Assembly (NCBI GenBank): GCA_025350525.1 | Contig: JANXXR010000006.1 | Span: forward strand, 1-35,865 | Length of the DNA stretch: 35,865 nucleotides | Reading direction: 5' to 3' | Source: Deltaproteobacteria bacterium | Lineage (GTDB): Bacteria > Myxococcota > Myxococcia > Myxococcales > 40CM-4-68-19 | In this document: piece by piece, positions 6,770 to 28,437 of the stretch | Layout: the number at the start of each line of letters is the position of its first letter | How positions within the stretch are numbered: position 1 is the first letter of the stretch | Program-made: the position numbers and the translations under genes | Notes under the pieces: model-generated | What the model saw: only the letters and a program-made list of their open reading frames with translations | The model's database searches: none | Told to the model about the DNA's origin: nothing

Positions 6770-9700
6770 ATGCGCGCACACCGGCCAGCGCTAGTCGCAG
6801 CGCTTTGCATTGCCGCCGCATCCTGTAATTCGGGTTCGCCCGCTGCGCCCGGCAAACGGGACCGCAGCCACGAGGTCATCTCGGATGCGGCCCACAACAG
6901 CGGCACGCCGGGAATCTATTTCCTCCGTCCCATGATGCCCGCGCAGCCGGCGCAACTCGGGCACAGCGCCCCGCCCGGGAGCTTCGGCGGCCCCTGGGTG
7001 GTCATCGATCGCATCTCGCTGCCCGCGGGATGCGTCAACGACTGCCCGGCGCAGGTGATCACGCCCAACGTCACCACCATCACCCGCACCGCCACCAGCG
7101 ACGGCACCGGCATTCCCGTCAGCAAGGGCGACGCGCGCAACCGGCTCGTCTACCACGTCAACCGCGTGCCGCCTCCGCCCGGCGACAGCGAGCCCGACGC
7201 CGACCTCGACGACGTGCCCGACGGCTACTGGTCGACGCACTGGGAGTCGGACGACTTCGGCACCCTGGTGAACGGCATCTACCGCGCTCACGTGTTCGTG
7301 GGCAGCGTCGCGCAGCCGCTCGAGCTCGGGTTCGCCGACATCGAGATCGTTCCCGACGGCATCTCGAACGCCGTCTGGAAGAAGATCGATCGCACCGAGT
7401 TCGTGCCGCTCAAGTTCGGGCACACCCTCCTCATCACCTTCCAGATCGAGCCTTCGGCGCTGGTCTGCCTGGGCGTCGCCTGCACCGCTTCGGACTCGTG
7501 CCACCTGGCGGGCGTCTGCGACCGCAGCACCGGCGCCTGCTCGACCCGGCCGCGCCGAACGGCACCTCTTGCGCGACCAACGGCGGTCAGTGCCACGGCG
7601 GGAGCTGCTCGTGCCCGACCGGGTACTCGCTCGCGAACGGGACCTGCACGCCGATCGACAGCTGCCTCATCCATCACGGCGGGTGCAACGGCGCTGCCGT
7701 CTGCACCAGCACCGGGCCCGGCCAGAACGTCTGCGGCTGCAACCCGGGCTACACCGGCGACGGCAAGAGCTGCACGCCCGGCCTCGCCATCACCGGCGTG
7801 ACCGACGGCGAGATCACCAACGCCGCCTCGGTGACGCCGGTGATCGTCTCTCCCGCGCCGGTGACGGCGGCGCTCGCCGGCGCGCCCTTCCTCTCCGGGA
7901 CCGCGGTCGCCGCCGAGGGAGATCACCTGCTCGCCGCGACGGCGGCAGACGCCTTCGGCAACCAGAAGTCGGCGACGGTGCACTTCTCCCTCGATCGAAC
8001 TCCGCCAGCCGTGGTCATCGCCGGGGTCAGCGACGGCGAGCTTCGCGCCGCGCCGGCGACCATCTCCTTCAGCGCCACCGACGCGCACCTCGCATCGGCG
8101 GCCGCGACCCTCGATGGCGCGCCCTTCGCCTCGGGGGGCACGGTCGCTAGCGAAGGCCTGCACCAGGTGGTGGTGACCGCTGCGGACGCCGCGGGAAACA
8201 GCGCCGTCGCCTCGGTGACGTTCCGCATCGTGCTGACGCCGCCCGCGATCGTGGTCGTGGCGCCGAGCGATGGCGCCTACCTCAACACCGCCACCGCCTC
8301 TGTGGTCGCGCAGGTCACCGACCAGGGCGGCGGCATCGCGCAGGTCCAGGCCAACGGCGTCGCGATGGTGTTCTCCACGGGCGCATTTCGCGCCGACCTG
8401 CCGCTGCTCGAGGGCGTGAACACCATCGCCGTCGCGGCCAGCGACCTGGTCGGCAACCGGTCGCAGGTGACCCTTTCGGTAATGCGCGACACGACACCGC
8501 CCGCGATCAACCTGACCTCGCCCGCCGACGGCGCGCACCTCGCGGCTGCGAGCGTGCAGGTGGTCGGCGTCGCCACCGACGCGAGCCCGCTGGTCGTGCG
8601 GGTCGACGGCGCGCCGGTGTCGCCGAGCTTCGCCACCACGGTGGCGCTGACTCCCGGGGCGAACCTGATCGTGGTCTTTGCCACCGACGCGGCCGGCAAC
8701 TCCTCCACCGTCACGCGCCAGGTGCGCTCGAACACGGTGCCGCCCGCGCTCGCGGTCCTGTCGCCGCCCGATGGCCTGATCACCAGCCAGACGACCATCG
8801 CGGTTTCCGGCACTGCCCCTCCCGGCGACAGCGCCGACACGCTCTCAGTCACCATCGACGGCGCGCCCGCGGCCCTGACCGGCGCGGCCTTCAGCGGCGC
8901 CGTCTCGCCCCCCGAGGGCGACCACACCATCGTCGTCACCGCCAAGGACAGCTACGGCCTTTCCGCGCAGCGGCAGATCCACCTCACGCGCGACACCACG
9001 CCGCCCGTGATCGCCATCAGCGGCGTGGCCGACGGCGAAATCCGCACCAGCCCCGTCAGCATCTCGTTCAGCGCCAGCGACGCGCACCTCTCTTCCGTCA
9101 GCGCCACGCTCGACGGCGCGCCCTTCGCGAGCGGAGGCACGGTGAAGAGCGCGGGGCCGCACGCGCTGGCCGTCCTCGCCAGCGACGCAGCAGGAAATGC
9201 GTCGGCCGTGTACTGCACTTCCGCCTCGCCCTTGCGCCGCCGCAGGTCACCATCCTCGCGCCTGCCGACGGCAGCTACGGTAACTCGCCCACCGCGGCCG
9301 TGGTCGCGCAGGTCACCGACGGCGGCGGCGGCATCGCGCAGGTCACCGCCAACGGCGTGCCGATGGCGCTGGGGGCAGGCGGGCTCTTCCGCGCCTCGGT
9401 GGCGCTCACCGAGGGCCACGACCTGATCGCGGTCACGGCCACCGATCTGGCGGCGCAGTCGGCCCAGCAGACGATCTCGGTCGTGCTCGACACGCAGCCC
9501 CCGGCCCTCAACCTCGCCGCTCCGGCCGAGGGCGCGTTCATCGCCGCGCTCAGCGCCACCGTCAGCGGCACCGTCACCGACGCGAGCCCGCTGGCGCTGA
9601 CGGTCAACGGCGCGGCGACGGCGGTGGCCGCCGGCGGAAGCTTCTCCATCACGGCGGCGCTGTCCGCGGGAGCGAACACCATCGTGGCGTTGGCGACCGA

Positions 9701-11876: not shown

Positions 11877-13439
11877 CTACCGGTCGTGGTCGTTGTCGTG
11901 TTCCCTGCAGACGAAGTTGGCCGCGTCGTTCGTGCTGCCGCGCCCCTTGTACTCGGCGAACTTCGGGAACGGGCACAGCGGGCGAGTGACCGCGACGCCG
12001 TTGGCAGGGTTGTCGCCGGTGAACTTGGTCGCCACGATGCTGTCCGGTGCGCGGCCCTGCTCGACCCATTGCACGAGCGGGGAAACCGTATCGAAAACGT
12101 TGGGGCCGGGCCCGCCGCCGCAGTGCAAAACGCCAGGAGCGAGGAAGAGGCGGTAGAACTCTTGCGTCTCCTCGCCGCCCTCGCGGGCGGAGACGGCATC
12201 GAAGTAATTGATGCTGCTCAGCGGAGAGATGGCCGGATCGTCCCAGCCGTGCCACTGGAGCAGCTTGCCTCCGTGCGCACGGAAGCGGCGCAGATCCGGA
12301 TCGGTGGAGTTGATGGTGCCGGCGGTGGTGTAATCAGCAAAGGAGACGTCGGTGTCGAAGTTGAACTTCGTGTAATCGAAGGAGGGATCCTCGAAGATGA
12401 TGAAGGTGAAGAACTGGTTTCCGAAGAACGCCTGGATGGTGGGCGAGCCCGCAATCGGGAAGGGTCCGGTGATCCAAGCCGACCAGCCGCCGGGCGCAGC
12501 CTCCGCGCCGGGGGCATAGCCCGGGAAGATCTGTCGGCCGGTGCGCGGGTTCCGCGGCCCGTCGTAGATGGCCTTCACCGCGGCCACCTGCGCGGCGGTG
12601 AGACAGGAGGGGCTGTCTGCGCCTTTGCACTGGATGCTCGCCGGATCGAAGTGGCACTGGCGCGGATCGTTGAGGACGCCGTCGAGGACTCCGTCCAGCT
12701 TGTCGCACTGGGCGAGGGCCGCAGCCTGGATGGCGGGGAGCTTGTTGGCGGGGATGCTGCCGGCCGGATCCGCGAACAGCGCCTTTTCGTTCCAGATGAA
12801 GCCGGTAAAGAGGTGCGTCCAGTCGTTGGCGGGAGCGCCGGCGGAGATGCCGTCGAAATCCTCGGGGAAGCGCTGCGCCTCCATCAAGGCCTCGCGGCCC
12901 CCGTCGGAGCAGCCCACGAAGTACGATCGCGACGGTCCCGTTCCATAGAACGCGGCGATAATCGCTTTTGCCTTGTCGGTGGTCTCCTTCAGCGCGCGGA
13001 ACCCGAAATCGATGACCTGCTGGTGGTGTCCCGGTGCGAAGGTGGCCGTGCCGCCGACGTGCCCGTCGTCGGTGCCCGCTGCCGCATAGCCGAGTTGCAG
13101 GGCGCCGGCGAGCGAGCCATAGGGAACCGCGCCGGCGAATCCGCCGTTGCCCGACTGCTGATATCTGCCGTTCCAGGTGGAGGCGGGCATCCAGACTTCG
13201 CTGATGATGTGCGAGTCGGGGCTGGGCGCGGAGTTGACTGCCACGCGGCAGAAGGCGGGGAGATTTGCGAAGGTCTGACCATTGGGCGCTTTGTAAGAAC
13301 CCGCCGGAACCGATTGTGCCGCGGTGATGGTGGCGTGGGGCAGCGAGAGTCCGGTCAGGCTGCTGCAGGGCGCTGCGTGGACGGGAGCGGCGGCGAACGC
13401 GGCGCACGCGAATGCGAGCGCGGTAAGGATGCGAGTCAT
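11877..13439 (-). CDS. Secreted tannase/feruloyl esterase family alpha/beta hydrolase, 520 aa
   Basis: Sec signal (..PVHA/AP), FCRV, GNGGFAG, nucleophile GCSDGG, HGWDD, LHCGGG (CS-D-HC motif), TRPLCPFP; AGGAGG RBS upstream. Confidence 0.95.
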   Translation of the reverse strand: MTRILTALAFACAAFAAAPVHAAPCSSLTGLSLPHATITAAQSVPAGSYKAPNGQTFANLPAFCRVAVNSAPSPDSHIISEVWMPASTWNGRYQQSGNGGFAGAVPYGSLAGALQLGYAAAGTDDGHVGGTATFAPGHHQQVIDFGFRALKETTDKAKAIIAAFYGTGPSRSYFVGCSDGGREALMEAQRFPEDFDGISAGAPANDWTHLFTGFIWNEKALFADPAGSIPANKLPAIQAAALAQCDKLDGVLDGVLNDPRQCHFDPASIQCKGADSPSCLTAAQVAAVKAIYDGPRNPRTGRQIFPGYAPGAEAAPGGWSAWITGPFPIAGSPTIQAFFGNQFFTFIIFEDPSFDYTKFNFDTDVSFADYTTAGTINSTDPDLRRFRAHGGKLLQWHGWDDPAISPLSSINYFDAVSAREGGEETQEFYRLFLAPGVLHCGGGPGPNVFDTVSPLVQWVEQGRAPDSIVATKFTGDNPANGVAVTRPLCPFPKFAEYKGRGSTNDAANFVCREHDNDHDR

Positions 13440-15795: not shown

Positions 15796-16536
15796 TCAGG
15801 CCTCGTCGAGCTTGAAGAAATGCGCCTGGCGGTCCCGGTGGGCCAGGAGCGCGGGCGTGATCGCCGCTGCCACCGCCCCATCGAGCCACCCGAAGGCGCC
15901 GCGCGCTCTGGCTGGCAAAGCGCGGATCGAGTCGGGCAGCGGCAAGAGCGCATTGATGCACGCCGCGCAGTACACATCGAGCGCCGAGAACCGATCGAAG
16001 AAGAACCGCCTGCCCCCGAGCCGCCCATCGAGCGCGCGCAAAAGGGAGACGCAGCGCTCGCGCGCCCAATCCAGCTCATCAGGCTGGTGCCCATAGCGCC
16101 CTAAGAGAAATTGCCCCGCGCGCGGCGCCAGCCCTTCGCGTCCGTCGGTCGCGAGCCCGCGAGAGACGAGCATTGCCCGCCGCGCCCAGGCCAACCCGCG
16201 CTCCCCGAGCAGCTCGTGGCCGAGGCCGAAGAGCTCGACCCGGTGCTCCGGAGGAATGTGCCCCGGTGCGAGCCGCTCGAGCAGCGAGAGGATCTCCGCC
16301 CAGCCGCTGCGGGGAAGCTCCCCTGAAAAGAGCGCGGCCGGCGCGTTGGCGACTCCCGACCAGCGCGTGGTCTCGGCGTCGCCGGCCGCGAGCCGCACCG
16401 CGACCGCGTCGAGCTGCTTGGCCGCGACCAAGGCAAGGACCGAGTCGGACCACGGGCTGGGGGCGCTGGTGAGCAAGACCAGCCGCAGACCGCTCGCCGC
16501 CTTCGCCGTCTCCAGTTCGACGAATGTGATTCCCAT
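15796..16536 (-). CDS. Glutathione S-transferase-like protein, 246 aa
   Basis: ATG 16536 (MGITFVEL..); SPWS and NAP motifs in a thioredoxin-like N-domain; C-terminal FFFDRFSALDVY GST-C motif. The ORF-track extension to 16968 overlaps the divergent gene. Confidence 0.75.
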   Translation of the reverse strand: MGITFVELETAKAASGLRLVLLTSAPSPWSDSVLALVAAKQLDAVAVRLAAGDAETTRWSGVANAPAALFSGELPRSGWAEILSLLERLAPGHIPPEHRVELFGLGHELLGERGLAWARRAMLVSRGLATDGREGLAPRAGQFLLGRYGHQPDELDWARERCVSLLRALDGRLGGRRFFFDRFSALDVYCAACINALLPLPDSIRALPARARGAFGWLDGAVAAAITPALLAHRDRQAHFFKLDEA

Positions 16537-16641
16537 GCCGCGCACAATGCCACGGCGCGCGGCCCCTGAAACTCTCTCCGCCTCTTCCGTGCTAGATCTG
16601 GCCGCGGGAGAGAACATGGCCGCGGATTCGGGTCGCCGGGC

Positions 16642-17169
16642 GTGAGGGCGAGACGGAACGACCTCAGCGCGCTCGACCTCCAGATCGATCCCGAATGGGA
16701 AGCTGTGAAGGCGGTCTGGGACCCGTGCCGGGTCTTCCTCGAGCGGGGAGGGCTCGCGGATGACGAGACCTACCAGCTCGCCATGGTGGCGCGCGAGCTG
16801 CTCGAGAACGCCGTGAAGTTCGGAGCCTTCGCGGAAGGGGATCGCGTTCAACTCGCCATCCGCGTCGCCGCCGAAGACGTCGTGGTCGAAGTGAAGAGCC
16901 GCGTCGGCGTGGACGAGGCGCACCTGCGTCGCTTCGATCAGACCATCCAGTGGATCCGCGGGTTCCAATATCCCTTCGAGGCCTTCGTCGAACGGATGAA
17001 GCTCGTCTCCGCGCAGCCTTCCTCGGAGGGCGAGACCGGCCTCGGACTGACCCGCATCGCCTACGAAGGGAGAAGCATCATCGATTTCTACCTGGACGAA
17101 GACGACCTCCTTGCGGTCTCGGCGATCTACCGGCGGGACATCCCGGGGGGCGTTTGGAGAACTCCATAA
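16642..17169 (+). CDS. Stand-alone GHKL ATP-binding protein (RsbW/SpoIIAB/SiaB-like Ser/Thr kinase), 175 aa
   Basis: N-box RELLENAVKFG and G2-box GLGLTRI; no His-kinase dimerisation domain. Confidence 0.85.
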   Translation: MRARRNDLSALDLQIDPEWEAVKAVWDPCRVFLERGGLADDETYQLAMVARELLENAVKFGAFAEGDRVQLAIRVAAEDVVVEVKSRVGVDEAHLRRFDQTIQWIRGFQYPFEAFVERMKLVSAQPSSEGETGLGLTRIAYEGRSIIDFYLDEDDLLAVSAIYRRDIPGGVWRTP

Positions 17170-17528
17170 AGAAATGGGTCCAGACGGGTCTCGAGATCTC
17201 CCTCGCGCAGGAGCCAGGCGGACTTCGCCTGAGCTGGGTGGGCAAGAGCACGGCGCGCGAACCCCGGGTCTTCCTGGTGCCGATCCTGCTGGAGGCGTTC
17301 CAGAGCGCCCTGGCCGCCGCGCTTCCGTTGGTGCTCGACTTCACCGCGCTGGACTACATGAACTCGGCCACCCTGACCTCGGTGGTGAAAGCGTTCGAAG
17401 AGTCGCGCCGGCTCTCGGTTCCGATCGTCCTCGAGTACAGCCTTTCGCGAAGGTGGCAGGCGCTTTCGTTTGAAGCTTTCCGGACCTTCGAGACGCCCGA
17501 CGGCCGGATCAAGGTCACCGGCAAGTGA
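17154..17528 (+). CDS. STAS / SiaC(DUF1987)-like phosphoacceptor protein, 124 aa
   Basis: TTG at 17154 after a G-run, overlapping the upstream gene end. LVLDFTALDYMNSAT resembles the anti-sigma-antagonist phospho-site loop. The TGA overlaps the next GTG. Confidence 0.75.
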   Translation: MENSIKKWVQTGLEISLAQEPGGLRLSWVGKSTAREPRVFLVPILLEAFQSALAAALPLVLDFTALDYMNSATLTSVVKAFEESRRLSVPIVLEYSLSRRWQALSFEAFRTFETPDGRIKVTGK

Positions 17529-18928
17529 TCGGCGCGCCCGTCGCGGAGCCGCGGCGCAGGGGACGCTCCGTGCTCAGCGGGCGGCCGCTGACGTTCAGCG
17601 CCGGGGCGGCGAGCCGGCTCAGCCTCGAGGTGTCCTTCGAGGAAGGTGCCGTCCTCCCCGACGGCGCCGAACTGCAGTGGGTGGAGATCGAGCTGGCGCA
17701 GCTGGTCCGGCTCGGCCGGTGCCGCTTCGCCGCACAGGACGGCAAAAAAGAGGGCGCTGCCGGACGCTTGCTCTTCCTCGACGAGGTGTACGACTGCCGG
17801 ATCCTGATCCGCGACGGCAGGTTGATGGACCTCCGCGGCTTCTTCCAGAACCTGCCCCTGGTCCTCTTGCAGCGCGAGCGCATCCGGCCCGAGTTCAAGG
17901 AGCACTGCGCGCGGGTCGTCTACGACCTCGCGGTCTACAAGCGCTTCTTCGACGAGCAGGACCGGATCATCGACGAGGAGCCGGCCGACGTCGCCGGCGC
18001 CGCGCGCGAGGCGCTGCTCAAGGCCGACGGCCGGCGCTTCCTCGGCTTCCTCGACGAGAAGGTCCGGGAGCTCGACGCGCTCGTCCACGACTACACCTAC
18101 GAAGAGCACGAGCGGCACGGCTTCTATCTGCGCCGCTTGCTCTGGCCCTATCTCATGTCGGGCAAGATCCTGCGCCGCTCAAACTTGAAACCGCAGGGCT
18201 ATGCCGGCGATGCCGAGATGATGATCATGGTCTACGAGAACAGCTACGCAGGCCGGACCGTCTTCGACCAGCTGATGCACAAGCACGCGGTCGAGACGGC
18301 CGCGGCCGAAGCGGTCCGCTCCCGGCGGCGGCTGGTCCCCCGCGTGCTGCGGGAAGTGGAGGAACGGGTTGGGGATCCAGGGCCAGACGGATTCCACTTC
18401 CTCTCGCTGGCCGCTGGACCCGCGAGCGAGCTCGAGGAAGTCTTCCGCGGTCCGGGCGACGTAGAGCGGTTCAACCTGACGCTCCTGGATCAGGACCCCG
18501 TCGCGCTCGACCTGGCCCGGGCGACCGTGCGGCGGATCGAGGTGGCGCGGGGGGCTGCCCTGTCCGTGCGCTACCTGCAGCAGTCGGTTCGAACCGTGAT
18601 TCGCAGCCGCGACCTGGGGAGCGTGGTGGGACGGCATCACTTCGTCTACTCGATGGGGCTCTTCGACTACCTCTCCGCGCCCGTGGCGCGCGCGGTCCTG
18701 GCAAAGATCTGGGAGGTGGTGCGCCCCGGCGGCACGCTCCTCGCCGGCAATTTCCACTCCAGCACCGCCTCTCGCTACCACATGGCGTACTGGGCCGACT
18801 GGTCGCTTTGGTACCGCACCGAGGAGAGCTTCTTGGCCCTCGCTGAAGGTCTCGAGTACTCCTCGGCGCGCATCGATTTTGATGAGACCGGCTGCCAGAT
18901 GTTCCTTCGCCTGGAGAAACCCGCCTGA
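17525..18928 (+). CDS. Class I SAM-dependent methyltransferase, PhcB-like (3-hydroxy fatty acid methyl ester synthase family), 467 aa
   Basis: KPQGYAGD.EMM motif; SAM motif I LSLAAGPASE; LLDQD; YSMGLFDYL; VRPGGTLLAGNF; DW.L.YR. Length and motifs resemble Ralstonia PhcB-type proteins (recalled, not searched). Confidence 0.85.
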   Translation: MIGAPVAEPRRRGRSVLSGRPLTFSAGAASRLSLEVSFEEGAVLPDGAELQWVEIELAQLVRLGRCRFAAQDGKKEGAAGRLLFLDEVYDCRILIRDGRLMDLRGFFQNLPLVLLQRERIRPEFKEHCARVVYDLAVYKRFFDEQDRIIDEEPADVAGAAREALLKADGRRFLGFLDEKVRELDALVHDYTYEEHERHGFYLRRLLWPYLMSGKILRRSNLKPQGYAGDAEMMIMVYENSYAGRTVFDQLMHKHAVETAAAEAVRSRRRLVPRVLREVEERVGDPGPDGFHFLSLAAGPASELEEVFRGPGDVERFNLTLLDQDPVALDLARATVRRIEVARGAALSVRYLQQSVRTVIRSRDLGSVVGRHHFVYSMGLFDYLSAPVARAVLAKIWEVVRPGGTLLAGNFHSSTASRYHMAYWADWSLWYRTEESFLALAEGLEYSSARIDFDETGCQMFLRLEKPA

Positions 18929-18957
18929 GGGTCAGCGGATCCTGAAGGTCAGCGGAT
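18924..18957. repeat. 17-bp tandem duplication at a convergent gene junction
   Basis: cctgagggtcagcggat / cctgaaggtcagcggat (16/17 identical); spans the stop codons of both converging genes. Confidence 0.8.
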
Positions 18958-21744
18958 GTGGATCGCCCCGGAGGTCAGCTTGCCGGTGATCGCCGTCCCG
19001 TCGCTGAGGGTGAGGGTGATCGAGCCGCCCCCCACCGCGCTGTCCACCGCCACCAGCGTGAAGGTGACGAGGTGGCCGGCGTTGACACCCGCGCCGGTCA
19101 TGGTCGCGCTGTGGCTGACCGGATCCGAGGAGGCCGAATCCGTCCGCGTCGAGCGGAAGCTGGTGCCGGTGCCGTCGTCGCGGTAGTCGGCCTTCTCGCC
19201 GCCGTCGTTGCAGACGAAGGCGAACTGGCCGTGCTTTCCGTTGCCCTCGTCGGTCTCGCCGGCGCCGTCGTCGTGCTGGTCGCCGCAAGTCAGCGGCACC
19301 GGCCCGACGTTGCCCAGCGTGAAATCGAACGACCGGGTCGCGTCCACGTCGGTGTAGAGGTCGGTGCGGGAGTTGTCCCGGCCAAAGGTGAGCGCGGTCA
19401 CGTTGTAGAGCGTGCTGCCGAGGATGGGGCGGCCCGGACCGAAGCCGTCCAGCGGCACGTCGATGGTGATGATGTCCCCCTGCACGGAGCCCTGGGCGGC
19501 AAACTCGGCCGGGTACTGCACCACCTTGCAGGTGTCGGGGGTGGTGATGACGCAGCCGGTGCCGGGGACCGCGCCCTGCGAGGAGGAGCCGCTGCCCGCG
19601 AAGAAGCTGGGCGGGCCGCCCGCCACCGACTCGGCCCCGAGGTAGAAGATGCGGTACGACTCCTCTCCCTGGTCGCCCCGCGAGAGCGCCTGGAAGCGGG
19701 TCAGCCAGACCGCGTTGGCCTTGCCCGGCGGCGGCGCGAAGCTCGCCAGCTTCTGCAGACCCATCTGCACCCGCAGCGTCTTGAGGTCGGGCTGGCTGAG
19801 CGCGATGCCGGTGAAGTCCAGCTGCGGCTGATTGGCGCCGGGTCCGGTCACCGGCGCGTAGTGCGGCGACTGCGCGTCGCCGGTCGGGTCGAAGGTCGGG
19901 TCTCCCGGCGGCGTCTCGGAGAGGACCCTGCCAGAGGCGGTCGGGCCGGCCAGCTGGCGGGTCTCGAAGAGGTGCGCGCCGTGGTGCTGGCTGGTGGTGT
20001 CGTTGTAGACGATGCGCAGCCTGCCGTCGCGGTCGAGGGTGATGCCGAAGTAGTCGGCCATGGTGCGATCGCCGCCGCTGATGCAGAGCGTGCCGTTGGT
20101 GCAGATCTGGCCGTAGTGCATCGGCTTCTCGGTGAAGCGCGCCTGGGCGAAGGCCGGCGTCGCCGAGAGCGCATTGGTGATGACCGAGGCGTAGCCGTAC
20201 CACTTGTACGCGGTGGCGGCCTGCCGGTTTACCGTCCACGAGGCCATGAGATTTGGATCGAGGCGCTCGGAGGTGCCGTACCAGACGGCCACCAGCGTGC
20301 CGGCGGCGCCCGCCTGCGTCCAGGGCATGATGTTGGTGTTCGCGTCCGGGCCGCCGTTGATGCGGACGATGGGACCCCAGTGCGCCCCCGCGTCGGTCGA
20401 GGCGGTGTAATAGACGTTGTAGTCCTTCCGATCGACCCACACCGCGTAGAGGTTTCCGGCGGCGTCGGTCGAGACCACGGGGAAGAGGTTGCTGACGTTG
20501 CCGCCGGGCGAGGCCGGCGTGTTGACGGTGTGGAAGAGGATGCCGGTGCGCTGGCCAGGGTCCACGTGGCCCACCGAGATGATCACGTGGTCGCCGCCGC
20601 CGCAGGGCAGGTAGAGGTTGCGGCGCACCGGATCGAAGCGCATCTGGCCGCAGGGCGCGCCGGTGTTGACCGTCGTCTGCGGCGCCGCCGTGGCAGGCTG
20701 GTAGACGATGCCGCCCACCGGATCGGCCGGGCCCGTCGAGCCGGGCGTCGAGTAGACGTACGGCCCGGTTTGGAGCTGGCGGAAGGTGAGAAAGACGGTG
20801 TTGTCGGTCGCCGCCGCGGTCAGGCCGTTGTCGACCGCGAGCCACTGCCGGTCGATGGCGGCGTTGGCTCCCCCGAACGGATTCTTGCGAAAGCTGTTGC
20901 CGTGGTCGTTGGAGACGGAGACCCCGATGCCGGTGAGATCCTCGAGGTCGGAGAAGTATGCGTAGCCCTGGTCGTCGACGACGACGTCGGTGTCGCCGCC
21001 GCCCGGGGGCGGGTCGGGCCGCACGCCGACGCTGAGGGGCGTGACGATGTTGAACTGGTCGCCGCGGTCCACCGAGCGGTGGATGAACGACTGGTTGGTG
21101 CTGGCGCCGAACGGCCCCGACTCCCAATAGGCGCCCGAGCTGTCGATGACGCTGAGCGGCTCGCCCTCGGTGCGCTGCGCGTCGACCACTGTCGCCGGAC
21201 CGAAGGCGAGTCCTCCGGTGGTGCGGGGCGGACCCTGCGTCGGGCCGCCGGGGGTCGAGGCGAAGAGGGCCGTCCCGCTGTAGCCTCCCATCACCACGGT
21301 GGCGGGCAGCACGCGGACTTCATACGTGCCCGACGGATTCTTCAGGAACACGCTTTCGGTGCAGGTCCCGCCTGCCGACTTTCCCACCTGCGTCCCCGCC
21401 GCGTCGTAGACGTAGAGGTCGAAGTCGTTGAGCGTGCTCGGGCAGGTGATGTCGATCCGGACCCCGCCGTTGTTGGTGGCCCAGTAGGAGCTGGGGACGT
21501 CCACCGTCAGGTAGTAGTGATCGCAGCGGAGGTTGGCCGGGTCGGCCGCGGGCGGGCAGGCGGCCGGATCGGCGTTGACGCCGACCACGTACGTCTGCCC
21601 GGTCCAACTCGCCGAGGTCGAAGCCGGACCGACGGTGCCGGCAGGCGGTGTCGCAGCCCGGGACGAGAAGGCGGCGAGCAGGGCCGCGACGGCGAGTCCA
21701 GCCGGCGACAGGCGGTGCGAGTGAGTCCACTGAGCGCAGGTCAT
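18949..21744 (-). CDS. Secreted Asp-box (BNR/sialidase-like) beta-propeller protein with PPC-like N-domain and C-terminal beta-domain, 931 aa
   Basis: Signal peptide ending SRA/ATP; NDFDLYVYD PPC-like motif; Asp-boxes SVDRGDQF, SNDHGNSF, STDAGAHW; DRQWLAVD; GGAG RBS. Confidence 0.85.
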   Translation of the reverse strand: MTCAQWTHSHRLSPAGLAVAALLAAFSSRAATPPAGTVGPASTSASWTGQTYVVGVNADPAACPPAADPANLRCDHYYLTVDVPSSYWATNNGGVRIDITCPSTLNDFDLYVYDAAGTQVGKSAGGTCTESVFLKNPSGTYEVRVLPATVVMGGYSGTALFASTPGGPTQGPPRTTGGLAFGPATVVDAQRTEGEPLSVIDSSGAYWESGPFGASTNQSFIHRSVDRGDQFNIVTPLSVGVRPDPPPGGGDTDVVVDDQGYAYFSDLEDLTGIGVSVSNDHGNSFRKNPFGGANAAIDRQWLAVDNGLTAAATDNTVFLTFRQLQTGPYVYSTPGSTGPADPVGGIVYQPATAAPQTTVNTGAPCGQMRFDPVRRNLYLPCGGGDHVIISVGHVDPGQRTGILFHTVNTPASPGGNVSNLFPVVSTDAAGNLYAVWVDRKDYNVYYTASTDAGAHWGPIVRINGGPDANTNIMPWTQAGAAGTLVAVWYGTSERLDPNLMASWTVNRQAATAYKWYGYASVITNALSATPAFAQARFTEKPMHYGQICTNGTLCISGGDRTMADYFGITLDRDGRLRIVYNDTTSQHHGAHLFETRQLAGPTASGRVLSETPPGDPTFDPTGDAQSPHYAPVTGPGANQPQLDFTGIALSQPDLKTLRVQMGLQKLASFAPPPGKANAVWLTRFQALSRGDQGEESYRIFYLGAESVAGGPPSFFAGSGSSSQGAVPGTGCVITTPDTCKVVQYPAEFAAQGSVQGDIITIDVPLDGFGPGRPILGSTLYNVTALTFGRDNSRTDLYTDVDATRSFDFTLGNVGPVPLTCGDQHDDGAGETDEGNGKHGQFAFVCNDGGEKADYRDDGTGTSFRSTRTDSASSDPVSHSATMTGAGVNAGHLVTFTLVAVDSAVGGGSITLTLSDGTAITGKLTSGAIHIR

Positions 21745-21756
21745 GGCGAGCTCCGG

Positions 21757-24639
21757 TTAGCGGGGGTGGATGGAGAGGACGCCGGACACCAGCGGCGCGC
21801 TCTTCTGATAGAGGAAGCCCAGCGGCCCGGTGATGGTCATGGTGAAGGTGCCGACCTGCGTCGCCGTCGGCAGGTTGCAGGCGGTGAACGCGTAGGTGTA
21901 GCCGGGCTGGAGGTTCACGGTGGCGGCGCCGAGCAGGTTCACGCAGGCGCCGTTCGAGTAGGTGACGGCCTGCGAGCCGCCCACGCTCTGCATGGTGAAG
22001 TTGTCGCGGGGCGCGCTGTACTCGACGTTGCTGTTCTCCGGGTGGTTCGGGTCGTCGGAGAAGCTGGCGTGATCGCGGTCGGCAGCGTCCGAGTCGTCGC
22101 CCTCGCCGCTGTCGCCGCCGCCGCTGCCCGGAGGAGCGCCCACCCAAGTGGCGGTGTCGAACCGGTATGTGCCGTTGAGGCGGGTGAGGTCGGAGATGCC
22201 GTCGCCCCCGCCGGTCTGGGCCTGGCCGCGCAGGCCAATAAAAGTCGCGCCGGAGACGATGGCCCCGTGCTTCTGCAGCGCGTTCAGCTTCGCCAGCGCG
22301 ACCTTGACGGTGACCTGCTTGTTGACGAGGTCGAAGGCGCCGAAGTCCGCCGGACCGACGGTGGTGTAGACCATGTGCCCGCCGGAATCGCGCACCGCGG
22401 TTCCGTACGAGAACGTCTGCACTCCCTGCGGGTCGGTCGCGGCCAGCAGGAACCACTGGTCGGCGTGGTCGGAGACGAACGGCCGCGTCGGGTTGGTGGC
22501 GAAGCTCATCCGCCAGGTGCTATCGGGCGGCACCGAGGTCAGCCCCGACAAGCGCATGGTGGCGCTGATCAAGGTCGTCGGCGTGGTGACGTCGCAGCCG
22601 TATTGCACCGAGAGGATGTCCACCGGGCTGTCAGTCGGGGTGACCGCGAGGAGCCCGGCGGCCTGATCGTGCAGCTCGTCGACGACCTGGGGCTGCGTCG
22701 GGTCCGGCGCCGGCGCGCGATCGGTTCCCTGGATCTTCACCTGCGCGCCGGTGTGGAGGCTCAAGCCGCCGGTCTGGTGGGTGACGTACGGGTTCCCCTT
22801 GTAGTCGTTGTGGTCGTCGTCGAAGGTGATGAAGGCGAGGCCCTGCGGGTCGGTCTCCAGCTGGAAGAAGTCGCCCAGGTTGCGGTTGGCCGCGCCGCCG
22901 AATCCGCCCAGGCTGATGTTCGAGCCGTGCACGTAGTGGTCGCTCGCCACCGACTGGTAGAAGGTCGGGTTCTGCGCGGTCGCGTTCAGGCTCTCGGCGA
23001 AGAAGACCTTCCAGTTGGCGGCGTCGTTGTTCTGGCCCTTGCCGTCGTCGGTGTCGGAGACCTCGGTGCCGTACCAGGCCACGGCGATGCTGCCCGGCTT
23101 CTTGCCGGTGGTGATCCAGGGCAAGAGCGAGGTCGAGGGGCTGGCGAGGTTGCTGACCTTCACCGGCTGCGTCCAGGTCTTGCCCTGATCGGAGGAGGAG
23201 GCGAGGTAGATGGCCACGCCGCCGTCCGAATAGGCGACGTAGACGGTGCCGTCGGGCGCCACCTTGCACACGGGAAAGAGCGCCGCGATCGTGGCCGTCT
23301 TTCCCGTGGCGGCGGTGACGGTGTGGAAGTCGGCCGCGGTCGGCCCCAGCGAGCGCACCGTCGGGTGGCCGATGGCGACGTTCAGCTGGTTGGCGCTGGT
23401 CCCCTGCATGCAGAAATAGACGGTGCCGTCGCGCTGATCGACGGTGACCGGGCCGGTGGTGTTGCCGCCCACGGCGGCGAGGACGGGCGGGCCATAGGAG
23501 AAGCCGGCGTCGGTGGAGCGGTTGATCCAGAACTTCGAGGTTGCCACGAGGCCGGTGAAGTCGCGGTAGGCGAGGTAGACGGTGTCGCTGCCGTCGAACT
23601 CCATCCAGTTGCGGTCGTCGAGGGGGCTGGCCGAGTTGCCCGCCGGGTTGCGCTGGTAGCTGTTGGCGCGGTCGAAGGAGCGCTGCGTGGAGATGTTGGC
23701 CGCCACCAGGCTGGAGAGCGCCAGCGCCGGCACGTTGCCGCCGCCCGACGTCTGGGGCAGCGCGAAGCCGACCGCCATGTCCATGTCGCCGCCGCCGTCG
23801 CCCCCCAGCTGGGGGTTCTGCTGGCCGGTGACCGAGTCGGGCATGCCCTTGTACGACGGGTTGAAGGAGTTGCCGCCTCGGTCGATCGAGGCGGTCGCCC
23901 TCCGCAAGAAAGGATCGTAGCTGGCGCTGTTCGGGTTCAGGTCGAAGCGCCAGAGGTCATCGCCGCCGGGCACTCCGCGGATGCCGCCCGCGTAGGCGTT
24001 TCCCTGGAAGTCGACCCGGACGCTCGGCTCGTTGTCGCCGGTCGCGGCGAAGGCCAGGAGCGTGCGGTTGCGGCTGAAGGAGATGCCGACCTTGCTGCCC
24101 GGCACGTAGTTCGCCACCCGCGGCGCGGGTCCGGCCGGAATGGCCTCGAGCGCGGCGGTGCCCGTGTAGGGATCGGAGGTCACCACCGCGAAGTAGATGG
24201 CGCGCACCGCGAAGGTGTCGTTGACGCCGGCCGCGACGACGCGGTCGATGTCGAGCGTGGTCTCCTCGCTGGTCTCGGGAACGCCTCCGCCCTTCGAGGC
24301 CACCAGCGGGCCGGAGACGGAGCCGGTGAAGACGTCCAGATCGTAATCGTTGTACTGGTTCACCCACGCGATCTTGAAGTGGATGCGCTTGCCGGTGTAG
24401 TCGCCCGGCGCGAGGCGCAGCGTGAAGGTGTCGCAGTTGGTACCCTCGATGCAGGTGGTCTCGCCCTGCGGGCTCGCGGCCACCGCGGCGAATCCGTTCC
24501 AGGTCACAGTGGCGCCGGGGCTGAGCGTGCCGCTGGCCGGCGTCGCGGCCCGGGCTTCGCGGTGAAAGGAGGACAAGCCGGCGGTCACCACCAGGGTCAC
24601 TGCCGCGGTCAGCGTCGCGAGCATCAACTTGGTTTTCAT
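21757..24639 (-). CDS. Secreted Asp-box beta-propeller protein, paralog of 18949..21744, 960 aa
   Basis: Signal peptide ending ARA/ATP; NDYDLDVF; Asp-boxes SFDRANSY, STDAGFSY, SSDQGKTW; DRNW; AGGAG RBS overlapping the upstream stop. Confidence 0.85.
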   Translation of the reverse strand: MKTKLMLATLTAAVTLVVTAGLSSFHREARAATPASGTLSPGATVTWNGFAAVAASPQGETTCIEGTNCDTFTLRLAPGDYTGKRIHFKIAWVNQYNDYDLDVFTGSVSGPLVASKGGGVPETSEETTLDIDRVVAAGVNDTFAVRAIYFAVVTSDPYTGTAALEAIPAGPAPRVANYVPGSKVGISFSRNRTLLAFAATGDNEPSVRVDFQGNAYAGGIRGVPGGDDLWRFDLNPNSASYDPFLRRATASIDRGGNSFNPSYKGMPDSVTGQQNPQLGGDGGGDMDMAVGFALPQTSGGGNVPALALSSLVAANISTQRSFDRANSYQRNPAGNSASPLDDRNWMEFDGSDTVYLAYRDFTGLVATSKFWINRSTDAGFSYGPPVLAAVGGNTTGPVTVDQRDGTVYFCMQGTSANQLNVAIGHPTVRSLGPTAADFHTVTAATGKTATIAALFPVCKVAPDGTVYVAYSDGGVAIYLASSSDQGKTWTQPVKVSNLASPSTSLLPWITTGKKPGSIAVAWYGTEVSDTDDGKGQNNDAANWKVFFAESLNATAQNPTFYQSVASDHYVHGSNISLGGFGGAANRNLGDFFQLETDPQGLAFITFDDDHNDYKGNPYVTHQTGGLSLHTGAQVKIQGTDRAPAPDPTQPQVVDELHDQAAGLLAVTPTDSPVDILSVQYGCDVTTPTTLISATMRLSGLTSVPPDSTWRMSFATNPTRPFVSDHADQWFLLAATDPQGVQTFSYGTAVRDSGGHMVYTTVGPADFGAFDLVNKQVTVKVALAKLNALQKHGAIVSGATFIGLRGQAQTGGGDGISDLTRLNGTYRFDTATWVGAPPGSGGGDSGEGDDSDAADRDHASFSDDPNHPENSNVEYSAPRDNFTMQSVGGSQAVTYSNGACVNLLGAATVNLQPGYTYAFTACNLPTATQVGTFTMTITGPLGFLYQKSAPLVSGVLSIHPR

Positions 24640-24649
24640 TGGGTAGCTC

Positions 24650-27535
24650 CTAGAAGTGGAAGGACCAGATGCCGCGGCCGAAGGTCGCGGCGAGGAGGAG
24701 GTTGGGATCGTTCGGGGCGAAGGTCAGGGCCGGCGTGGTGAAGGCGGGAAGGTTCGCGAGGACGCGCCAGGTGCCGCCGTCGAGCGTGCTGGAGATGAAG
24801 ACGCCGAGGTCGGTGCCGACGATCAGCCGGGTGCCGTGGACCACCACCCAGTCGGCCGGCGTGTCGGGCAGGTTGCCGGAGACGTCCACGAAGGTGTTGC
24901 CGCCATCCACCGACTTGAAGACGTGGCCGGTGCCGACGTTCTCCTGGAAGACGGCGCCGGGCGGCAGCCAGTGCGTGCTGTACCCGCCCAGTGCCGCGTA
25001 GACCGTGCGCGGATTCGCGGCGTCCATCCGCACCGAGTTGATGTACCGCCTGGGCAGCCCCGCGGGGTTCGGGATGACGTGCCAGCCGTTGCCGGTGAGC
25101 CGCTGCGCAGGCAGGGCGCCGCCCACGTTGGTGGCGAGCCCGCGACCGAAACGGTGCTGGCTGGTGCCGCTGCAGGGACCGCAATACCCGACGTAGGCGT
25201 TGTCGCCGACCAGGTCCACCGCGGAGAGCCGGTTGTTGGGATCGGCGGTGGTCTTGGTCGCGGCGGCGTCGCCCGGATGGTCGGCGGTGCCGAGGTCGAA
25301 CACCTTGGTCCAGACAAAGCCGGCGCAGGTCTCCTTGGCCGGCGTATTCACCACCGTGCAGGGCTGCGTGTACGCGTCGGTCGTCTCCTGCACGTCGCGC
25401 CCGCCGATGAGCAGGTGGCCAGCGCTGGTCGGATCCTGCTGCAGCGGCGTGGCGAAGAGCGGCGTGGTGAGCGCCGGATCGACGTGCTTCCAGGTGCTGC
25501 CGCCGTCGTTGGTGAGGGCGACCACGCCGCCCGCGTACTCCTCGACGATGTTCTTCGAGTTGTCAGGGTCGATGGCGGTGAAGAAGCCGTCGCCGCCGAA
25601 GATCATCACCTCGTATCCGGTGGGGGTGATCTTCATCTCGCCGTTGTCTTGAAGGCCGGCGACGATGGTGCCGTCCTTGGCGGCGGAGAGGTGGTAGGGC
25701 AAGAGCGTGGCGAGGCCGTCGTTGGCTCCGTTGCCCCAGCGGTCGTTGGAGAAGTCGGCGCCCGCGGCGACGTGCTGGAGGAAGGCGCCGCCGTCGTTGC
25801 CTGCGAGCAGCGTGACCCCGCCGCCCGACGCGTCGGGGACGAAGAGGCCGGCGTGCTGGTCGGGGTGCGTGGTGGTGCCGGGGATGGGCGAGGCGGCGCC
25901 GTTGCACTGGTAGCCCGGCAGCGAGAAGGCACAGGCGTTCCAGTAGCGGGCGATGACCTTCCAGGGAGTCGCCGCGGCGCTGACGCCGTTCTGCGGCTCG
26001 CCGACGAGGGTGTTCTCCCAGATCTCCTCGAGGCCGAAGGCGACACGGGTCGGCGCGTGGGTGAGCGCGTCGGTCGACGTCGGGTCGGCGTCGATCCAGA
26101 GGTTGTACCAGGACTGGACGCCCGGGTCGTAGCCGAGGGCGGCGCCGGCCGGCCCGAGCGAGCTGTTGGTCCCCGGCAGGGTGAGCTGCGACCAGTCCAT
26201 GATCTTGGTCCAGGTCTGGCCGAAGTCCTTGGAGACGTACGCGCCGTCGAGCACGGTGGGCGGGGCGGCAGTGCCGGCCGCGAGGCAGGTGTTGACCTCG
26301 AGGCCGGCCTGCACCTCGTCGAGGCAGCCGGCGATCTTCTGCGCGTCCTGCACGATGGCGTAGACGAGGTTGTGATCCTGGCCCACGCCGTGCGCGACGG
26401 TGAGCGCGGTGCGGCCGACGACGGGCGTGGGGGCGAAGCCGTTCTTCGAAGGGTTGCCGCCCGGGTCGACGAAGCTGAACGTTCCCGGCCTGCCGCTGGC
26501 GGAACGATAGATGCCGTTTTGCGGCGCCTGCTGAAGCGTGGTCGAGAGCGTTCCCTCGGCGTTGCGCATCTTCAGCTGGCCGCCGATCCAGCCGACCGCG
26601 GCGATCACCTGGCCGCCGCCCGCGCCGTTGGCGTCGGCGGGGCGGACCGTCACGTCGGTGACGATGTTGGCGAAGAAGCAGGCGCCGCTGGTGGTGTCGC
26701 CGGCGCAGTTGACCGGGTATCCCGCGGGCGAGGTGGGCAGGGCGACGTTGACGAAGGAGGCGCCGCCGTCGGTCGAGCGGTAGAGGCCCTTGCTGGTGGC
26801 GGCGTAGAGCGTCGCGCCGGTCGCGTCGCTCGGGTCGACGGCGATCCTGAACGAGAGCGCGCCGCTCGGGATCCCGGCGGCGTGGGTCCAGTGGCTCAGG
26901 TCGCGCGTGGTGAAGACGCCCAGACCCGACAGGGACAGGCCGCCGCCCATGGCGTTGTCGCCGGTGCCGGCGATGAGCGTGCCGCCGCCATAGCGGGAGA
27001 AGGCGATGGCGCCGACCACCTGGGTGGGCAGCCGATCGCCCACCGACTGCCAGCTGCCGCCGCCGTTGGTGGATTGCCAGACGCCGCCGCCCGCGACAGA
27101 AGCGAAGTAGCGGCCGGGCCGCGCCGGATCGGCGGCGAAGCCGGTGACGCGCGCCGAGAGCTTCACCCAGCCCAGCGAGCTGACGCCGTCGTTGATGTCG
27201 TTGTAGGCGGGATCATTGGCGTAGAGCGGGGCGTGGCCCACCTGGTGCCAGCCGTTGCCGGCGCCGGTGGCCCCGGTTCCGTCGTCATGATCCATCCCGT
27301 CGCGCTCGGCGATGGCCGACTCCTCCGCCCCTTCGGCGACCTCGTCGTAGGGGGCGGCGTGCTTGGCCACCGCCTCGAACTGGCGCGAGAGCTCCTCGAT
27401 GGGACTCTCGCCCGCGACCCGCCCCTCCCCGGCCTCCCGCTGCGCGCCGGGCCGGTCGGCGCAGAGGACGGCCGCGGCGAGGGACAGGACTGCGAGCCAG
27501 GAGTTCTGCCAACTCAGAGCGCGGAACGGTCGCAT
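24650..27535 (-). CDS. Secreted VPS10/GH74-like Asp-box beta-propeller protein, 961 aa
   Basis: ATG 27535 with AGGAG RBS; hydrophobic signal; at least 6 Asp-boxes (STNGGGSW, STDGGASF, SKDFGQTW, TNDGGSTW, SVDGGNTF, TLDGGTW); HPDQH, GNDGG, GLQDNG, GGDG; C-terminal AATFGRGIW. Confidence 0.88.
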   Translation of the reverse strand: MRPFRALSWQNSWLAVLSLAAAVLCADRPGAQREAGEGRVAGESPIEELSRQFEAVAKHAAPYDEVAEGAEESAIAERDGMDHDDGTGATGAGNGWHQVGHAPLYANDPAYNDINDGVSSLGWVKLSARVTGFAADPARPGRYFASVAGGGVWQSTNGGGSWQSVGDRLPTQVVGAIAFSRYGGGTLIAGTGDNAMGGGLSLSGLGVFTTRDLSHWTHAAGIPSGALSFRIAVDPSDATGATLYAATSKGLYRSTDGGASFVNVALPTSPAGYPVNCAGDTTSGACFFANIVTDVTVRPADANGAGGGQVIAAVGWIGGQLKMRNAEGTLSTTLQQAPQNGIYRSASGRPGTFSFVDPGGNPSKNGFAPTPVVGRTALTVAHGVGQDHNLVYAIVQDAQKIAGCLDEVQAGLEVNTCLAAGTAAPPTVLDGAYVSKDFGQTWTKIMDWSQLTLPGTNSSLGPAGAALGYDPGVQSWYNLWIDADPTSTDALTHAPTRVAFGLEEIWENTLVGEPQNGVSAAATPWKVIARYWNACAFSLPGYQCNGAASPIPGTTTHPDQHAGLFVPDASGGGVTLLAGNDGGAFLQHVAAGADFSNDRWGNGANDGLATLLPYHLSAAKDGTIVAGLQDNGEMKITPTGYEVMIFGGDGFFTAIDPDNSKNIVEEYAGGVVALTNDGGSTWKHVDPALTTPLFATPLQQDPTSAGHLLIGGRDVQETTDAYTQPCTVVNTPAKETCAGFVWTKVFDLGTADHPGDAAATKTTADPNNRLSAVDLVGDNAYVGYCGPCSGTSQHRFGRGLATNVGGALPAQRLTGNGWHVIPNPAGLPRRYINSVRMDAANPRTVYAALGGYSTHWLPPGAVFQENVGTGHVFKSVDGGNTFVDVSGNLPDTPADWVVVHGTRLIVGTDLGVFISSTLDGGTWRVLANLPAFTTPALTFAPNDPNLLLAATFGRGIWSFHF

Positions 27536-27579
27536 GCGGGCTCCTGCGGAAGCGCCAGGGATGGCGCGCAAGGCCCTTC

Positions 27580-27800: not shown

Positions 27801-28424
27801 TCAGTCGTTGCGAGACAAAGGCGATCGGTCGTGCGCGGGCCGCCTGGGTCGGGCCCGCCGCCATCCGACGCGCAGGAGCCAGGTGCGCGGCTCAGACAGC
27901 ACCTCGCGCGCCGCCGGCTCCGCCGAGGAGAACGGGTCGCGCCCGGCCGCGGCGAAGTGGTGCGCGGCGTTGCCGAGTACGTAGGCAATGGCGTTGGCCA
28001 GCGCGGTGGGCGAGGTTAGCAGGCGTGCGTGGTAGTGGTCGCCGAAGACCTTCCCGGCGCGGCCCATCATCTTGTTGAGCGCCTTGGCGATGCGGATGCA
28101 AAGCCCCTGCAGCGCCCGCGAGAGCGAGGCGTGGTCGTCGGCCTCGAGGATGAGGTGCAGGTGGTTCCCCTGCACGCTGAACTCGACGAGCCGCACCCCG
28201 AAGCGCCCGCGAGCTTTTTCGAAGCAGCTCCGGATGCGCCGGAAGCTCCGCTTGGAGCGCAAGTTCCAGACGTGATCGCGCATGCCCAGGGTCACGTGCA
28301 CCGGCGTCGCCCGCATGAAGCGCGGCCGGGCGGCGTGCGAGACGCGGTTGCCGCGCGGGCGGCCAGCGCCGTCGCGACGACCGCCGCGGGTGGGGAAGCT
28401 GAGCTGGCTGGAGCGAGCGCGCAT
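27801..28424 (-). mobile_element. REP-associated tyrosine transposase (RAYT; IS200/Y1 HUH family), 207 aa
   Basis: PVHVT, FSVQGNHLHLILE (HUH motif), GKVFGDHYH, AIAYVLGN (catalytic Tyr), DPFSS; N-terminal GGRRDGAGRP. ATG 28424 lies just downstream of a sigma70 promoter. Confidence 0.88.
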
Positions 28425-28437
28425 GAATTCGGGACTA

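Follow-up and report, generated by a model that had tools for sequence, protein, structure and literature searches.

What does a partner-switch kinase control when its gene, and that of its STAS partner, run directly into a gene for a PhcB-like methyltransferase? The question is raised by three genes at positions 16642-18928 (+) of the window, that is, the whole stretch of 35,865 nucleotides (nt) of contig JANXXR010000006.1 (assembly GCA_025350525.1) analysed here, which derives from a Deltaproteobacteria bacterium of the Myxococcota. An earlier reading of the letters alone, referred to below as the original prediction, had interpreted the trio as a myxobacterial module with a PhcB-type signal synthase in the place of the usual partner-switch output. 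Comparison with related loci showed that the natural unit is a cassette of four genes, encoding a kinase, a STAS protein, a PhcB-family methyltransferase, and a membrane phosphatase of the MASE8-PP2C type; the window carries the first three. By analogy with SiaABC, the cassette is probably a partner switch with the methyltransferase as its output.

The kinase gene occupies positions 16642-17169 (+) and encodes a GHKL Ser/Thr kinase-like protein of 175 amino acids (aa). It is followed by the STAS gene (17154-17528 (+), 124 aa), for which TTG is the sole plausible start codon, and by the methyltransferase gene (17525-18928 (+), 467 aa, GTG start). Both overlaps were read directly from the sequence. 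The kinase gene, with its TAA stop codon at 17167-17169, shares 16 nt with the STAS gene (17154-17169 (+)), and the TGA stop codon of the STAS gene (17526-17528) is joined with the GTG start of the methyltransferase gene at 17525 in a GTGA overlap (17525-17528 (+)). A G-rich stretch at 17145-17152 precedes the TTG start. The three co-directional, overlapping genes of the original prediction were therefore confirmed, as were its LDYMNSA and KPxGYAGD motifs, the latter present as KPQGYAGD in the methyltransferase; both are situated in the most conserved columns of their families. The G+C content at third codon positions was 0.82, 0.86, and 0.89 for the kinase, STAS, and methyltransferase genes, respectively, against 0.41-0.46 at second positions; such high third-position values are expected of real genes in a genome of about 70% G+C. 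A short 5' leader (16584-16641 (+)) extends between a divergent GST-like gene and the kinase start, and is kept in the closest relative (locus L019, blastn). On the opposite strand, positions 15796-16968 form a long open reading frame (ORF), of which just the GST-like lower part is genuine. The scan of positions 16300-19200 for a sigma-70-like promoter consensus and for terminators found neither; other promoter types were outside that scan.

The conservation of the set was assessed in a locus scan with one genome per species, in which 311 relatives were found and the best 80 were kept. Classification, using profiles built from the window and its paralogue, was performed on the 69 loci with at least 1.3 kb upstream and at least 1.5 kb downstream of the methyltransferase gene; 11 loci with too little flank were excluded. 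A kinase gene was located upstream of the methyltransferase gene in 67 of the 69 loci, and a gene for a membrane PP2C phosphatase was located downstream in 67 as well. The order kinase-STAS-methyltransferase-PP2C was observed in 49 loci and kinase-methyltransferase-PP2C in 17, among them 15 with a STAS gene after the phosphatase gene. The remaining three loci contained kinase-STAS-methyltransferase only, methyltransferase-PP2C only, and the methyltransferase gene alone (one each). The loci span at least six phyla and belong to Myxococcota, Spirochaetota (many Leptospirales), Calditrichota, Thermodesulfobacteriota, Nitrospirota, and the gammaproteobacterium Saccharospirillum, among others. The arrangement is far beyond chance: DNA similarity to two relatives breaks off precisely at the borders of the trio, and the gene order is found again in 67 of the 69 classified loci. 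The set is thus kept well beyond the window and is not specifically myxobacterial as had been proposed, and the trio described earlier is present in the window but forms only part of a unit completed by the phosphatase gene.

All-against-all clustering of flanking ORFs showed that only the cassette genes are near-universal; no further conserved family was found. An apparent 76-locus cluster of sigma-54 activators was rejected, being really the PP2C cluster and a few linked ORFs, in which overlapping frames had been merged by single-linkage clustering. Among 301 sampled Myxococcota genomes, 52 matched the methyltransferase profile at E <= 1e-60, and 27, including the genome of the window and the unpublished genome G598, encoded a full-length cassette-type methyltransferase (E <= 1e-150). 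Genomes sampled from the genus and family to which the window belongs showed only weaker, partial matches to this profile. Extra SiaC/STAS-like genes were observed just 3' of the phosphatase gene, often on the opposite strand, in Myxococcota loci such as L008 (5858-6241 (-)) and L025/L026 (about 8640-9560). Loci without a STAS gene between the kinase and methyltransferase genes are among those with such an extra gene, and the tested example had no Pfam match at E 0.001. A second SpoIIE/PP2C gene was located about 0.6-0.8 kb past the cassette phosphatase gene in L042 (9298-10731 and similar), L045, L046, L052, L058, and L071, mostly of the Leptospirales type, and about 2.6 kb past it in L079.

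The AlphaFold2 model of the kinase (predicted local distance difference test, pLDDT, 88.1) was compared with about 48,000 PDB representatives using VIA-align. The best fold match was SiaB of Pseudomonas aeruginosa (6kko_B; Z 15.4, 150 residues aligned), followed by UsfX (Z 15.2), the RsbW domain of Rv1364c (14.5), SpoIIAB (14.3), and RsbW (13.4). The ATP-binding (CA) domains of histidine kinases reached Z 8.0 or less, and Foldseek agreed with VIA-align on the SiaB/anti-sigma kinase type. A PDB sequence search with the kinase profile returned weak N-box matches only. Within the family, 21 of 22 members matched HATPase_c_2 and 12 of 22 matched DUF6272 (E <= 0.01). The 22-sequence alignment contained an invariant N-box (E..EN..K.G), an invariant GLGL box, and a family-specific block, IQWIRG...PF.AY.

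The profile of 22 STAS relatives matched the anti-sigma antagonist TM1442 (E 2.9e-5), the segment YMDSAGLG being aligned to YMNSSTIT, and, more weakly, RsbV, SpoIIAA, and SiaC. Pfam SiaC was matched by 20 of the 22 relatives; the window protein matched Pfam STAS only (E 5e-4). The motif Y-M-N-S-S-T is kept in at least 90% of relatives, and Ser71 within it is invariant and aligned with the Y-M-D-S segment (phospho-Ser region) of TM1442. The N-S-S-T part of the motif parallels N67-T68-S69 of SiaC, Ser71 corresponding to T68. This threonine is reported as the phosphorylated residue of SiaC and as a contact to the output enzyme (PMC8457831, PMC7647112), and the SiaC phosphopeptide LLYLNTSSIK is given with T68 phosphorylated (PMC7647112). 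Ser71 is the predicted phospho-acceptor of the STAS protein. Fold Z-scores, the TM1442 profile match, and the SiaC and HATPase_c_2 family matches support a putative partner-switch pair of the SiaB/SiaC and RsbW/RsbV type, in agreement with the original prediction.

The best curated sequence-family matches were the slr1658 and slr1659 superfamilies of NCBIfam, with scores far under the cut-off, and Pfam DUF6272, matched by the kinase relatives counted above; the window kinase is a distant relation of slr1658 and DUF6272. The kinase matched slr1658_superfam with E 1.5e-9 (37.6 bits) and the STAS protein matched slr1659_superfam with E 0.044 (14.1 bits), the curated cut-off being 100 bits in each case; it was not reached by the window proteins, and a search of the window's own genome gave 0 of 1 genomes over it. 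These entries suggest that a related kinase-like/STAS-like pair has already been noticed by curators.

RsbU/RsbV/RsbW and SpoIIE/SpoIIAA/SpoIIAB are established partner switches. The cassette resembles them in the kinase fold (RsbW, SpoIIAB, UsfX), in the STAS profile (TM1442, RsbV, SpoIIAA), and in having a phosphatase of the SpoIIE/PP2C family, but it encodes no sigma factor, and its conserved fourth partner is an enzyme. The cassette also resembles SiaABCD of P. aeruginosa in content: a membrane-anchored PP2C phosphatase (SiaA), a GHKL kinase (SiaB), a phosphoprotein (SiaC, DUF1987/STAS-like), and an output enzyme (SiaD) are likewise encoded together. Unlike SiaABCD, in which the output is the GGDEF diguanylate cyclase SiaD, the cassette would have a PhcB-family methyltransferase in this role. 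It also differs in the gene order kinase-STAS-methyltransferase-PP2C, in the MASE8-type membrane domain of its phosphatase, in a predicted acceptor Ser instead of the Thr of SiaC, in a kinase with no visible DxGxG, and, for the window copy, in the missing phosphatase.

The methyltransferase was modelled with AlphaFold2 at pLDDT 92.7. The predicted structure comprises an N-terminal beta-barrel (residues about 11-84), a helical domain (about 104-282) that holds the near-invariant KPxGYAGD motif, and a Rossmann methyltransferase domain (about 290-464). Alignments and model together identify the protein as a class I S-adenosylmethionine (SAM)-dependent methyltransferase of the PhcB family. Its top PDB match in Foldseek was an uncharacterised Bordetella protein (3ocj, E 1.8e-11), and the next matches were small-molecule O-, C-, and N-methyltransferases, e.g., SibL, SgvM, and natural-product O-methyltransferases. 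The family comprised 3754 representatives at E <= 0.001 and 219 at E <= 1e-30. Pfam PilZ was detected at the N-terminus of 26 of 98 diverse members of the wider family and in none of 27 methyltransferases of the cassette subfamily (E 0.01). The N-terminus of the subfamily could still be aligned with regions of distant members that carry PilZ motifs (hhalign 94.4%, E 9.4e-8). The cyclic di-GMP motifs of PilZ (RxxxR plus D/NxSxxG) are replaced, the window protein having A-x-S-x-x-S at the aligned positions. The N-terminal domain was therefore read as a probable degenerate PilZ-like domain. Complex prediction of the methyltransferase with the STAS protein from unpaired alignments gave scores of 0.00 and 0.00, which is no evidence either way.

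A rival explanation concerns the class of substrate. The methyltransferase might be a CheR-like enzyme that modifies a signalling protein, possibly a switch component or a receptor in the membrane, and the cassette would then be an adaptation circuit. All remaining cassette genes encode signalling proteins, Pfam CheR was weakly matched by 15 of the 98 wider-family members as well as by part of the cassette subfamily (counted below), and CheR proteins were the sole PDB sequence matches of the window methyltransferase (E about 0.8). These CheR matches are, however, under the cut-off and confined to the common SAM-binding part, whereas the top structural matches are the small-molecule enzymes named above. 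For PhcB, the sole characterised relative in the literature searched, the product described is a fatty acid methyl ester (PMC13532016). We regard a CheR-like function as quite improbable.

The relation to PhcB was examined through gene order. Many close homologues of the methyltransferase carry the JGI name 'extracellular factor (EF) 3-hydroxypalmitic acid methyl ester biosynthesis protein', which is the KEGG name for phcB. Ralstonia was absent among the best 80 of the 311 confirmed loci and among plasmid matches. PhcB-type genes were recognised by phcBSRQ synteny, and the comparison is consequently with phcBSRQ-type methyltransferases rather than with the experimentally studied Ralstonia protein. 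On a Paraburkholderia graminis plasmid (L089), the gene for a 468-aa methyltransferase precedes those for an ATP-binding protein and two response regulators, and 4 of 401 sampled Pseudomonadota genomes (L100-L103) carry methyltransferases with 54-69% identity. In one of these four, Pfam identified a methyltransferase, a HisKA-HATPase kinase, a receiver-HisKA-HATPase protein, and a receiver protein, all encoded by overlapping genes. The checked locus matches the order phcB-phcS-phcR-phcQ described in a review, which is also the source used here for the function of this quorum-sensing operon in the Ralstonia solanacearum species complex (PMC13532016).

The window methyltransferase and the plasmid one (467 and 468 aa) are 29% identical (E 5e-27) and colinear over residues 193-460; the phcBSRQ-linked enzymes compared were 462-468 aa long. 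The motifs KPxGYAGD, GPAxE, LLDxD, GLFDYL, and W.L.YR are common to the window protein and its phcBSRQ-linked counterpart. The family tree, a quick FastTree phylogeny of 153 rows with no approximately unbiased (AU) test, placed 76 cassette-linked methyltransferases on one side of a branch with support of 99-100, and five phcBSRQ-linked ones on another branch (support 100), with several clades of unknown context in between. On these alignments and this tree, the methyltransferase is a member of the PhcB family that lies outside the PhcB clade. The PhcB-like character claimed earlier therefore holds in homology, colinearity, length, and the JGI label of homologues, and not in clade membership according to FastTree, a grouping whose absence the original prediction had named as counting against it. 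No histidine kinase or response regulator genes, and hence none equivalent to phcS, phcR, or phcQ, were found among the neighbours of the trio.

The fourth gene of related cassettes encodes a protein of about 450-480 aa whose N-terminal half crosses the membrane several times and which contains a SpoIIE/PP2C domain (E 4e-37 to 3e-35). In the precomputed Pfam annotation of the 120 phosphatase homologues listed, PF20968 (MASE8) and PF07228 occurred together in 118, PF20968 alone in one, and PF07228 alone in one. MASE8 is listed among 'membrane-associated sensor domains' in a preprint. The membrane domain of the phosphatase was compared with the N-terminal membrane domain of PhcS-like kinases, and BLASTP aligned 143 residues at 25% identity (E 3e-7); both domains contain the motif S-x-Y-Y-A-G-L-N-L. 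Profile-profile comparison of 22 phosphatase with four kinase sequences gave a colinear alignment over 174 columns (hhalign 97.9%, E 4.9e-13); the score of 89.7 compares with a maximum of 17.7 over 30 column shuffles and with 15.6 for the reversed alignment. These comparisons show homology between the membrane domain of the phosphatase and the sensor domain of PhcS-like kinases. Homologues of both halves of Phc, synthase and sensor, thus travel together in the cassette, where the transduction chemistry would be different. As in PhcBSRQ, a homologous membrane sensor domain is encoded beside the methyltransferase, but in related cassettes it is fused to a PP2C phosphatase, while that of PhcS is fused to a histidine kinase. 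Transduction would proceed via the putative Ser phosphorylation of the STAS protein and not via PhcS, PhcR, and PhcQ. The separate clade of the cassette methyltransferases is a further difference from PhcBSRQ.

At 12 loci of the Calditrichota/Thermodesulfobacteriota type, a fifth gene follows the phosphatase gene (including L028:8789-11629, L059:4607-6880, and L068:8848-11232). In all three loci tested by Pfam it encodes a hybrid histidine kinase, with a membrane domain, GAF in some cases, PAS, HisKA, HATPase, and receiver domains. The N-terminus of the hybrid kinases aligned with the phosphatase sensor domain (hhalign 94.6%, E 6.8e-8) and weakly with the PhcS-like profile (5.7%, E 0.0067). 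A histidine kinase with a sensor domain of the phosphatase type is encoded in the window's own genome, on the 2.6-kb contig C697 (L084:121-1158 (-)): its membrane domain is 31% identical to residues 40-232 of the paralogue phosphatase (E 7e-18) and contains the motif S-P-Y-Y-A-G-V-N-L, followed by HisKA, in a PhcS-like architecture.

These sensor domains bear on a second explanation, true quorum sensing of the Phc type. Here the methyltransferase would, exactly like PhcB, make a 3-hydroxy fatty acid methyl ester. The receptor would be the phosphatase's MASE8 domain, and the partner switch would close an autoinduction loop; in some lineages the MASE8-like domain of the neighbouring hybrid histidine kinase would act as a receptor as well. 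It is favoured by the homology and colinearity of the methyltransferase with phcBSRQ-linked enzymes, by the PhcB label of its homologues, by the homology between the sensor domains of the phosphatase and of PhcS-like kinases, by the hybrid kinases at the 12 loci, whose N-terminus is homologous to the phosphatase sensor domain, and by the presence of a histidine kinase with such a sensor domain (L084) in the window's genome. It is opposed by the different clade and 29% identity of the methyltransferase, by the weak match of the hybrid-kinase N-terminus to the PhcS-like profile, and by the flank clustering, which showed no fatty-acid or export genes conserved in the cassette. A full Phc-type loop therefore appears possible, though doubtful.

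The reading that we favour, a SiaABC-like switch acting on the methyltransferase, would operate as follows. By analogy with SiaABCD, the kinase would phosphorylate the STAS protein on Ser71, and the membrane phosphatase would reverse this step on detection of a membrane-associated or lipophilic cue by its MASE8 domain. The unphosphorylated STAS protein would bind the methyltransferase, or free it from the kinase, and methylation would thereby be switched on or off. The degenerate PilZ-like domain or the helical domain of the enzyme is a possible docking site. The methyltransferase would most likely O-methylate a small carboxylate, e.g., a fatty-acid-derived molecule, as reported for its relative PhcB. 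Gene order, overlaps, conservation of the set, homologies, and predicted folds are the results on which this scheme builds; we infer from them the phosphotransfer, the binding, the direction of regulation, and the substrate.

Several observations weigh against this scheme. Every Pfam and NCBIfam match of the window's own three proteins is under the curated cut-offs, the Pfam scores being 25.4 bits for HATPase_c, 23.6 bits for HATPase_c_2, 19.3 bits for STAS, and 21.7 bits for Methyltransf_25; the family assignments consequently rest on alignments, profiles, and predicted folds, and not on Pfam alone. No DxGxG (G1) box was seen in the 22-sequence alignment of the kinase family, and the kinase could accordingly be a binding-only pseudokinase. 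The weak Pfam CheR matches in 10 of the 27 cassette-subfamily methyltransferases make a protein substrate possible. With a separate clade, found by FastTree only, and an identity of just 29%, the substrate of PhcB is not transferable to the cassette enzyme with confidence. On the sensor side, the local Pfam search found no MASE8 in the phosphatase of the paralogue and a match in just one of four PhcS-like proteins (E 6.5e-4, under the cut-off), and a common sensor family (MASE8) does not prove a common ligand. Finally, no PP2C gene was found beside the window trio: the next gene 3' of the methyltransferase gene is on the opposite strand and, by Pfam, has no PP2C domain. The window proteins also have unusual substitutions. 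Y60F, Y115F, and S132T of the kinase and the change from KPR to KPQ in the methyltransferase, all at columns at least 90% conserved, are common to the window and L019; S72A of the STAS protein replaces a 99% conserved Ser in the window only, with the acceptor Ser71 retained. These substitutions could reflect relaxed constraint.

The state of the window copy raises a third explanation, in which the kinase/STAS pair serves another target, e.g., a distant sigma factor, with the methyltransferase as a passenger, or in which the phosphatase-less trio is a decaying, functionless duplicate. The missing PP2C gene and the substitutions would fit it. So would a SiaC-like/slr1658-like pair next to an extracytoplasmic function (ECF) sigma-factor gene elsewhere in the genome, as such pairs can serve sigma factors. 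Across phyla, however, the kinase and methyltransferase genes are neighbours in 67 of 69 loci and no conserved sigma factor accompanies them, and all three window genes are intact and full-length, with invariant residues kept and a coding-type composition. Moreover, another genome retains the trio in different surroundings, with 83-85% DNA identity. In the nearest relatives, similarity begins at 16584 (L019, 83% identity by blastn) and ends at 18929 (L077, 85%), and L077 has no phosphatase gene within 6 kb. The phosphatase-bearing loci L017 and L003 are 72-74% identical at the DNA level from kinase to methyltransferase only. We therefore consider the passenger or decay explanation very improbable.

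A complete four-gene paralogous cassette is present elsewhere in the same genome, on contig C379, with a methyltransferase 42% identical to that of the window and a SpoIIE/PP2C domain recognised at E 4e-37. Within the favoured partner-switch reading, the window copy has lost its phosphatase gene and may now depend on the phosphatase of the paralogous cassette or be locked in the phosphorylated state. The pair beside the ECF sigma factor lies on contig C106 of the same genome (L086, about 3-1860). It consists of a SiaC-like protein (E-Y-F-N-S-A-F) and then an slr1658-like kinase, in the order STAS-kinase, is preceded by the C-terminus of an ECF sigma factor and a membrane protein, and represents a third, different partner-switch-like pair in this genome.

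The region occupied by the phosphatase gene in relatives contains, in the window, three consecutive ORFs of 931, 960, and 975 aa (18949-27577 (-)) with signal-peptide-like N-termini and almost no Pfam match, apart from one weak match to Sortilin-Vps10. They are followed by an IS200-like Y1 transposase (27801-28487 (-)) near a 1005-aa fusion of an nSTAND1 NTPase with an FGE-sulfatase-like part (29754-32771 (-)), with an ADYC-domain protein between them. The genes at 27801-32771, between the trio and a sigma-54 activator (FHA + AAA+; 33622-35253 (-)), are possibly mobile or defence-like. Positions 33868-34305 have 68% DNA identity to the sigma-54 activator (PrpR_N-PAS-AAA+-HTH) at L003:10510-12459 (-), which is located a few kb 3' of a complete cassette in an Anaeromyxobacter-like relative. 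This match may reflect the conserved AAA+ domain only; alternatively, about 15 kb could have been inserted between the cassette and the sigma-54 activator when the phosphatase gene was lost. On the other side of the trio, a gene of the tannase/feruloyl esterase family (11877-13439 (-); Pfam E 4e-133) is apparently unrelated to it.

Known partner-switch outputs include sigma factors and the diguanylate cyclases SiaD, HsbD, and BgrR, as described in two papers (PMC8457831, PMC7647112). Partner switches with enzyme outputs are thus known, but the literature searched contains none that combines a methyltransferase output with a PhcS-like sensor phosphatase. In agreement with the original prediction, no description of a kinase-STAS-methyltransferase-PP2C module was found in this literature, which was mostly outside subscription journals and did not cover the NCBIfam and Pfam family texts or the paper defining MASE8. 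A SAM-dependent methyltransferase as a conserved partner-switch output would extend the range of enzymes under such control by a new class. The sole functionally characterised member of the PhcB family met in the literature searched is the Ralstonia signal synthase, and through the cassette, homologues of the Phc synthase and of its receptor's sensor domain are placed in six or more phyla. The cassette thereby makes testable the occurrence of methyl-ester signalling far outside Burkholderiaceae, the ligands of MASE8, and the reuse of a degenerate PilZ domain.

Tentatively, and with less assurance than the partner switch itself, the cassette may be a widespread relative of Phc, in which a lipophilic methyl ester made by the methyltransferase is sensed in the membrane by the PhcS-like MASE8-PP2C phosphatase and feeds back on its synthase via a SiaB/SiaC-type switch. 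If this is true, Myxococcota, Leptospirales-type spirochaetes, Calditrichota, Thermodesulfobacteriota, and others would have retained the pair of synthase and receptor with a different wiring between its two halves.

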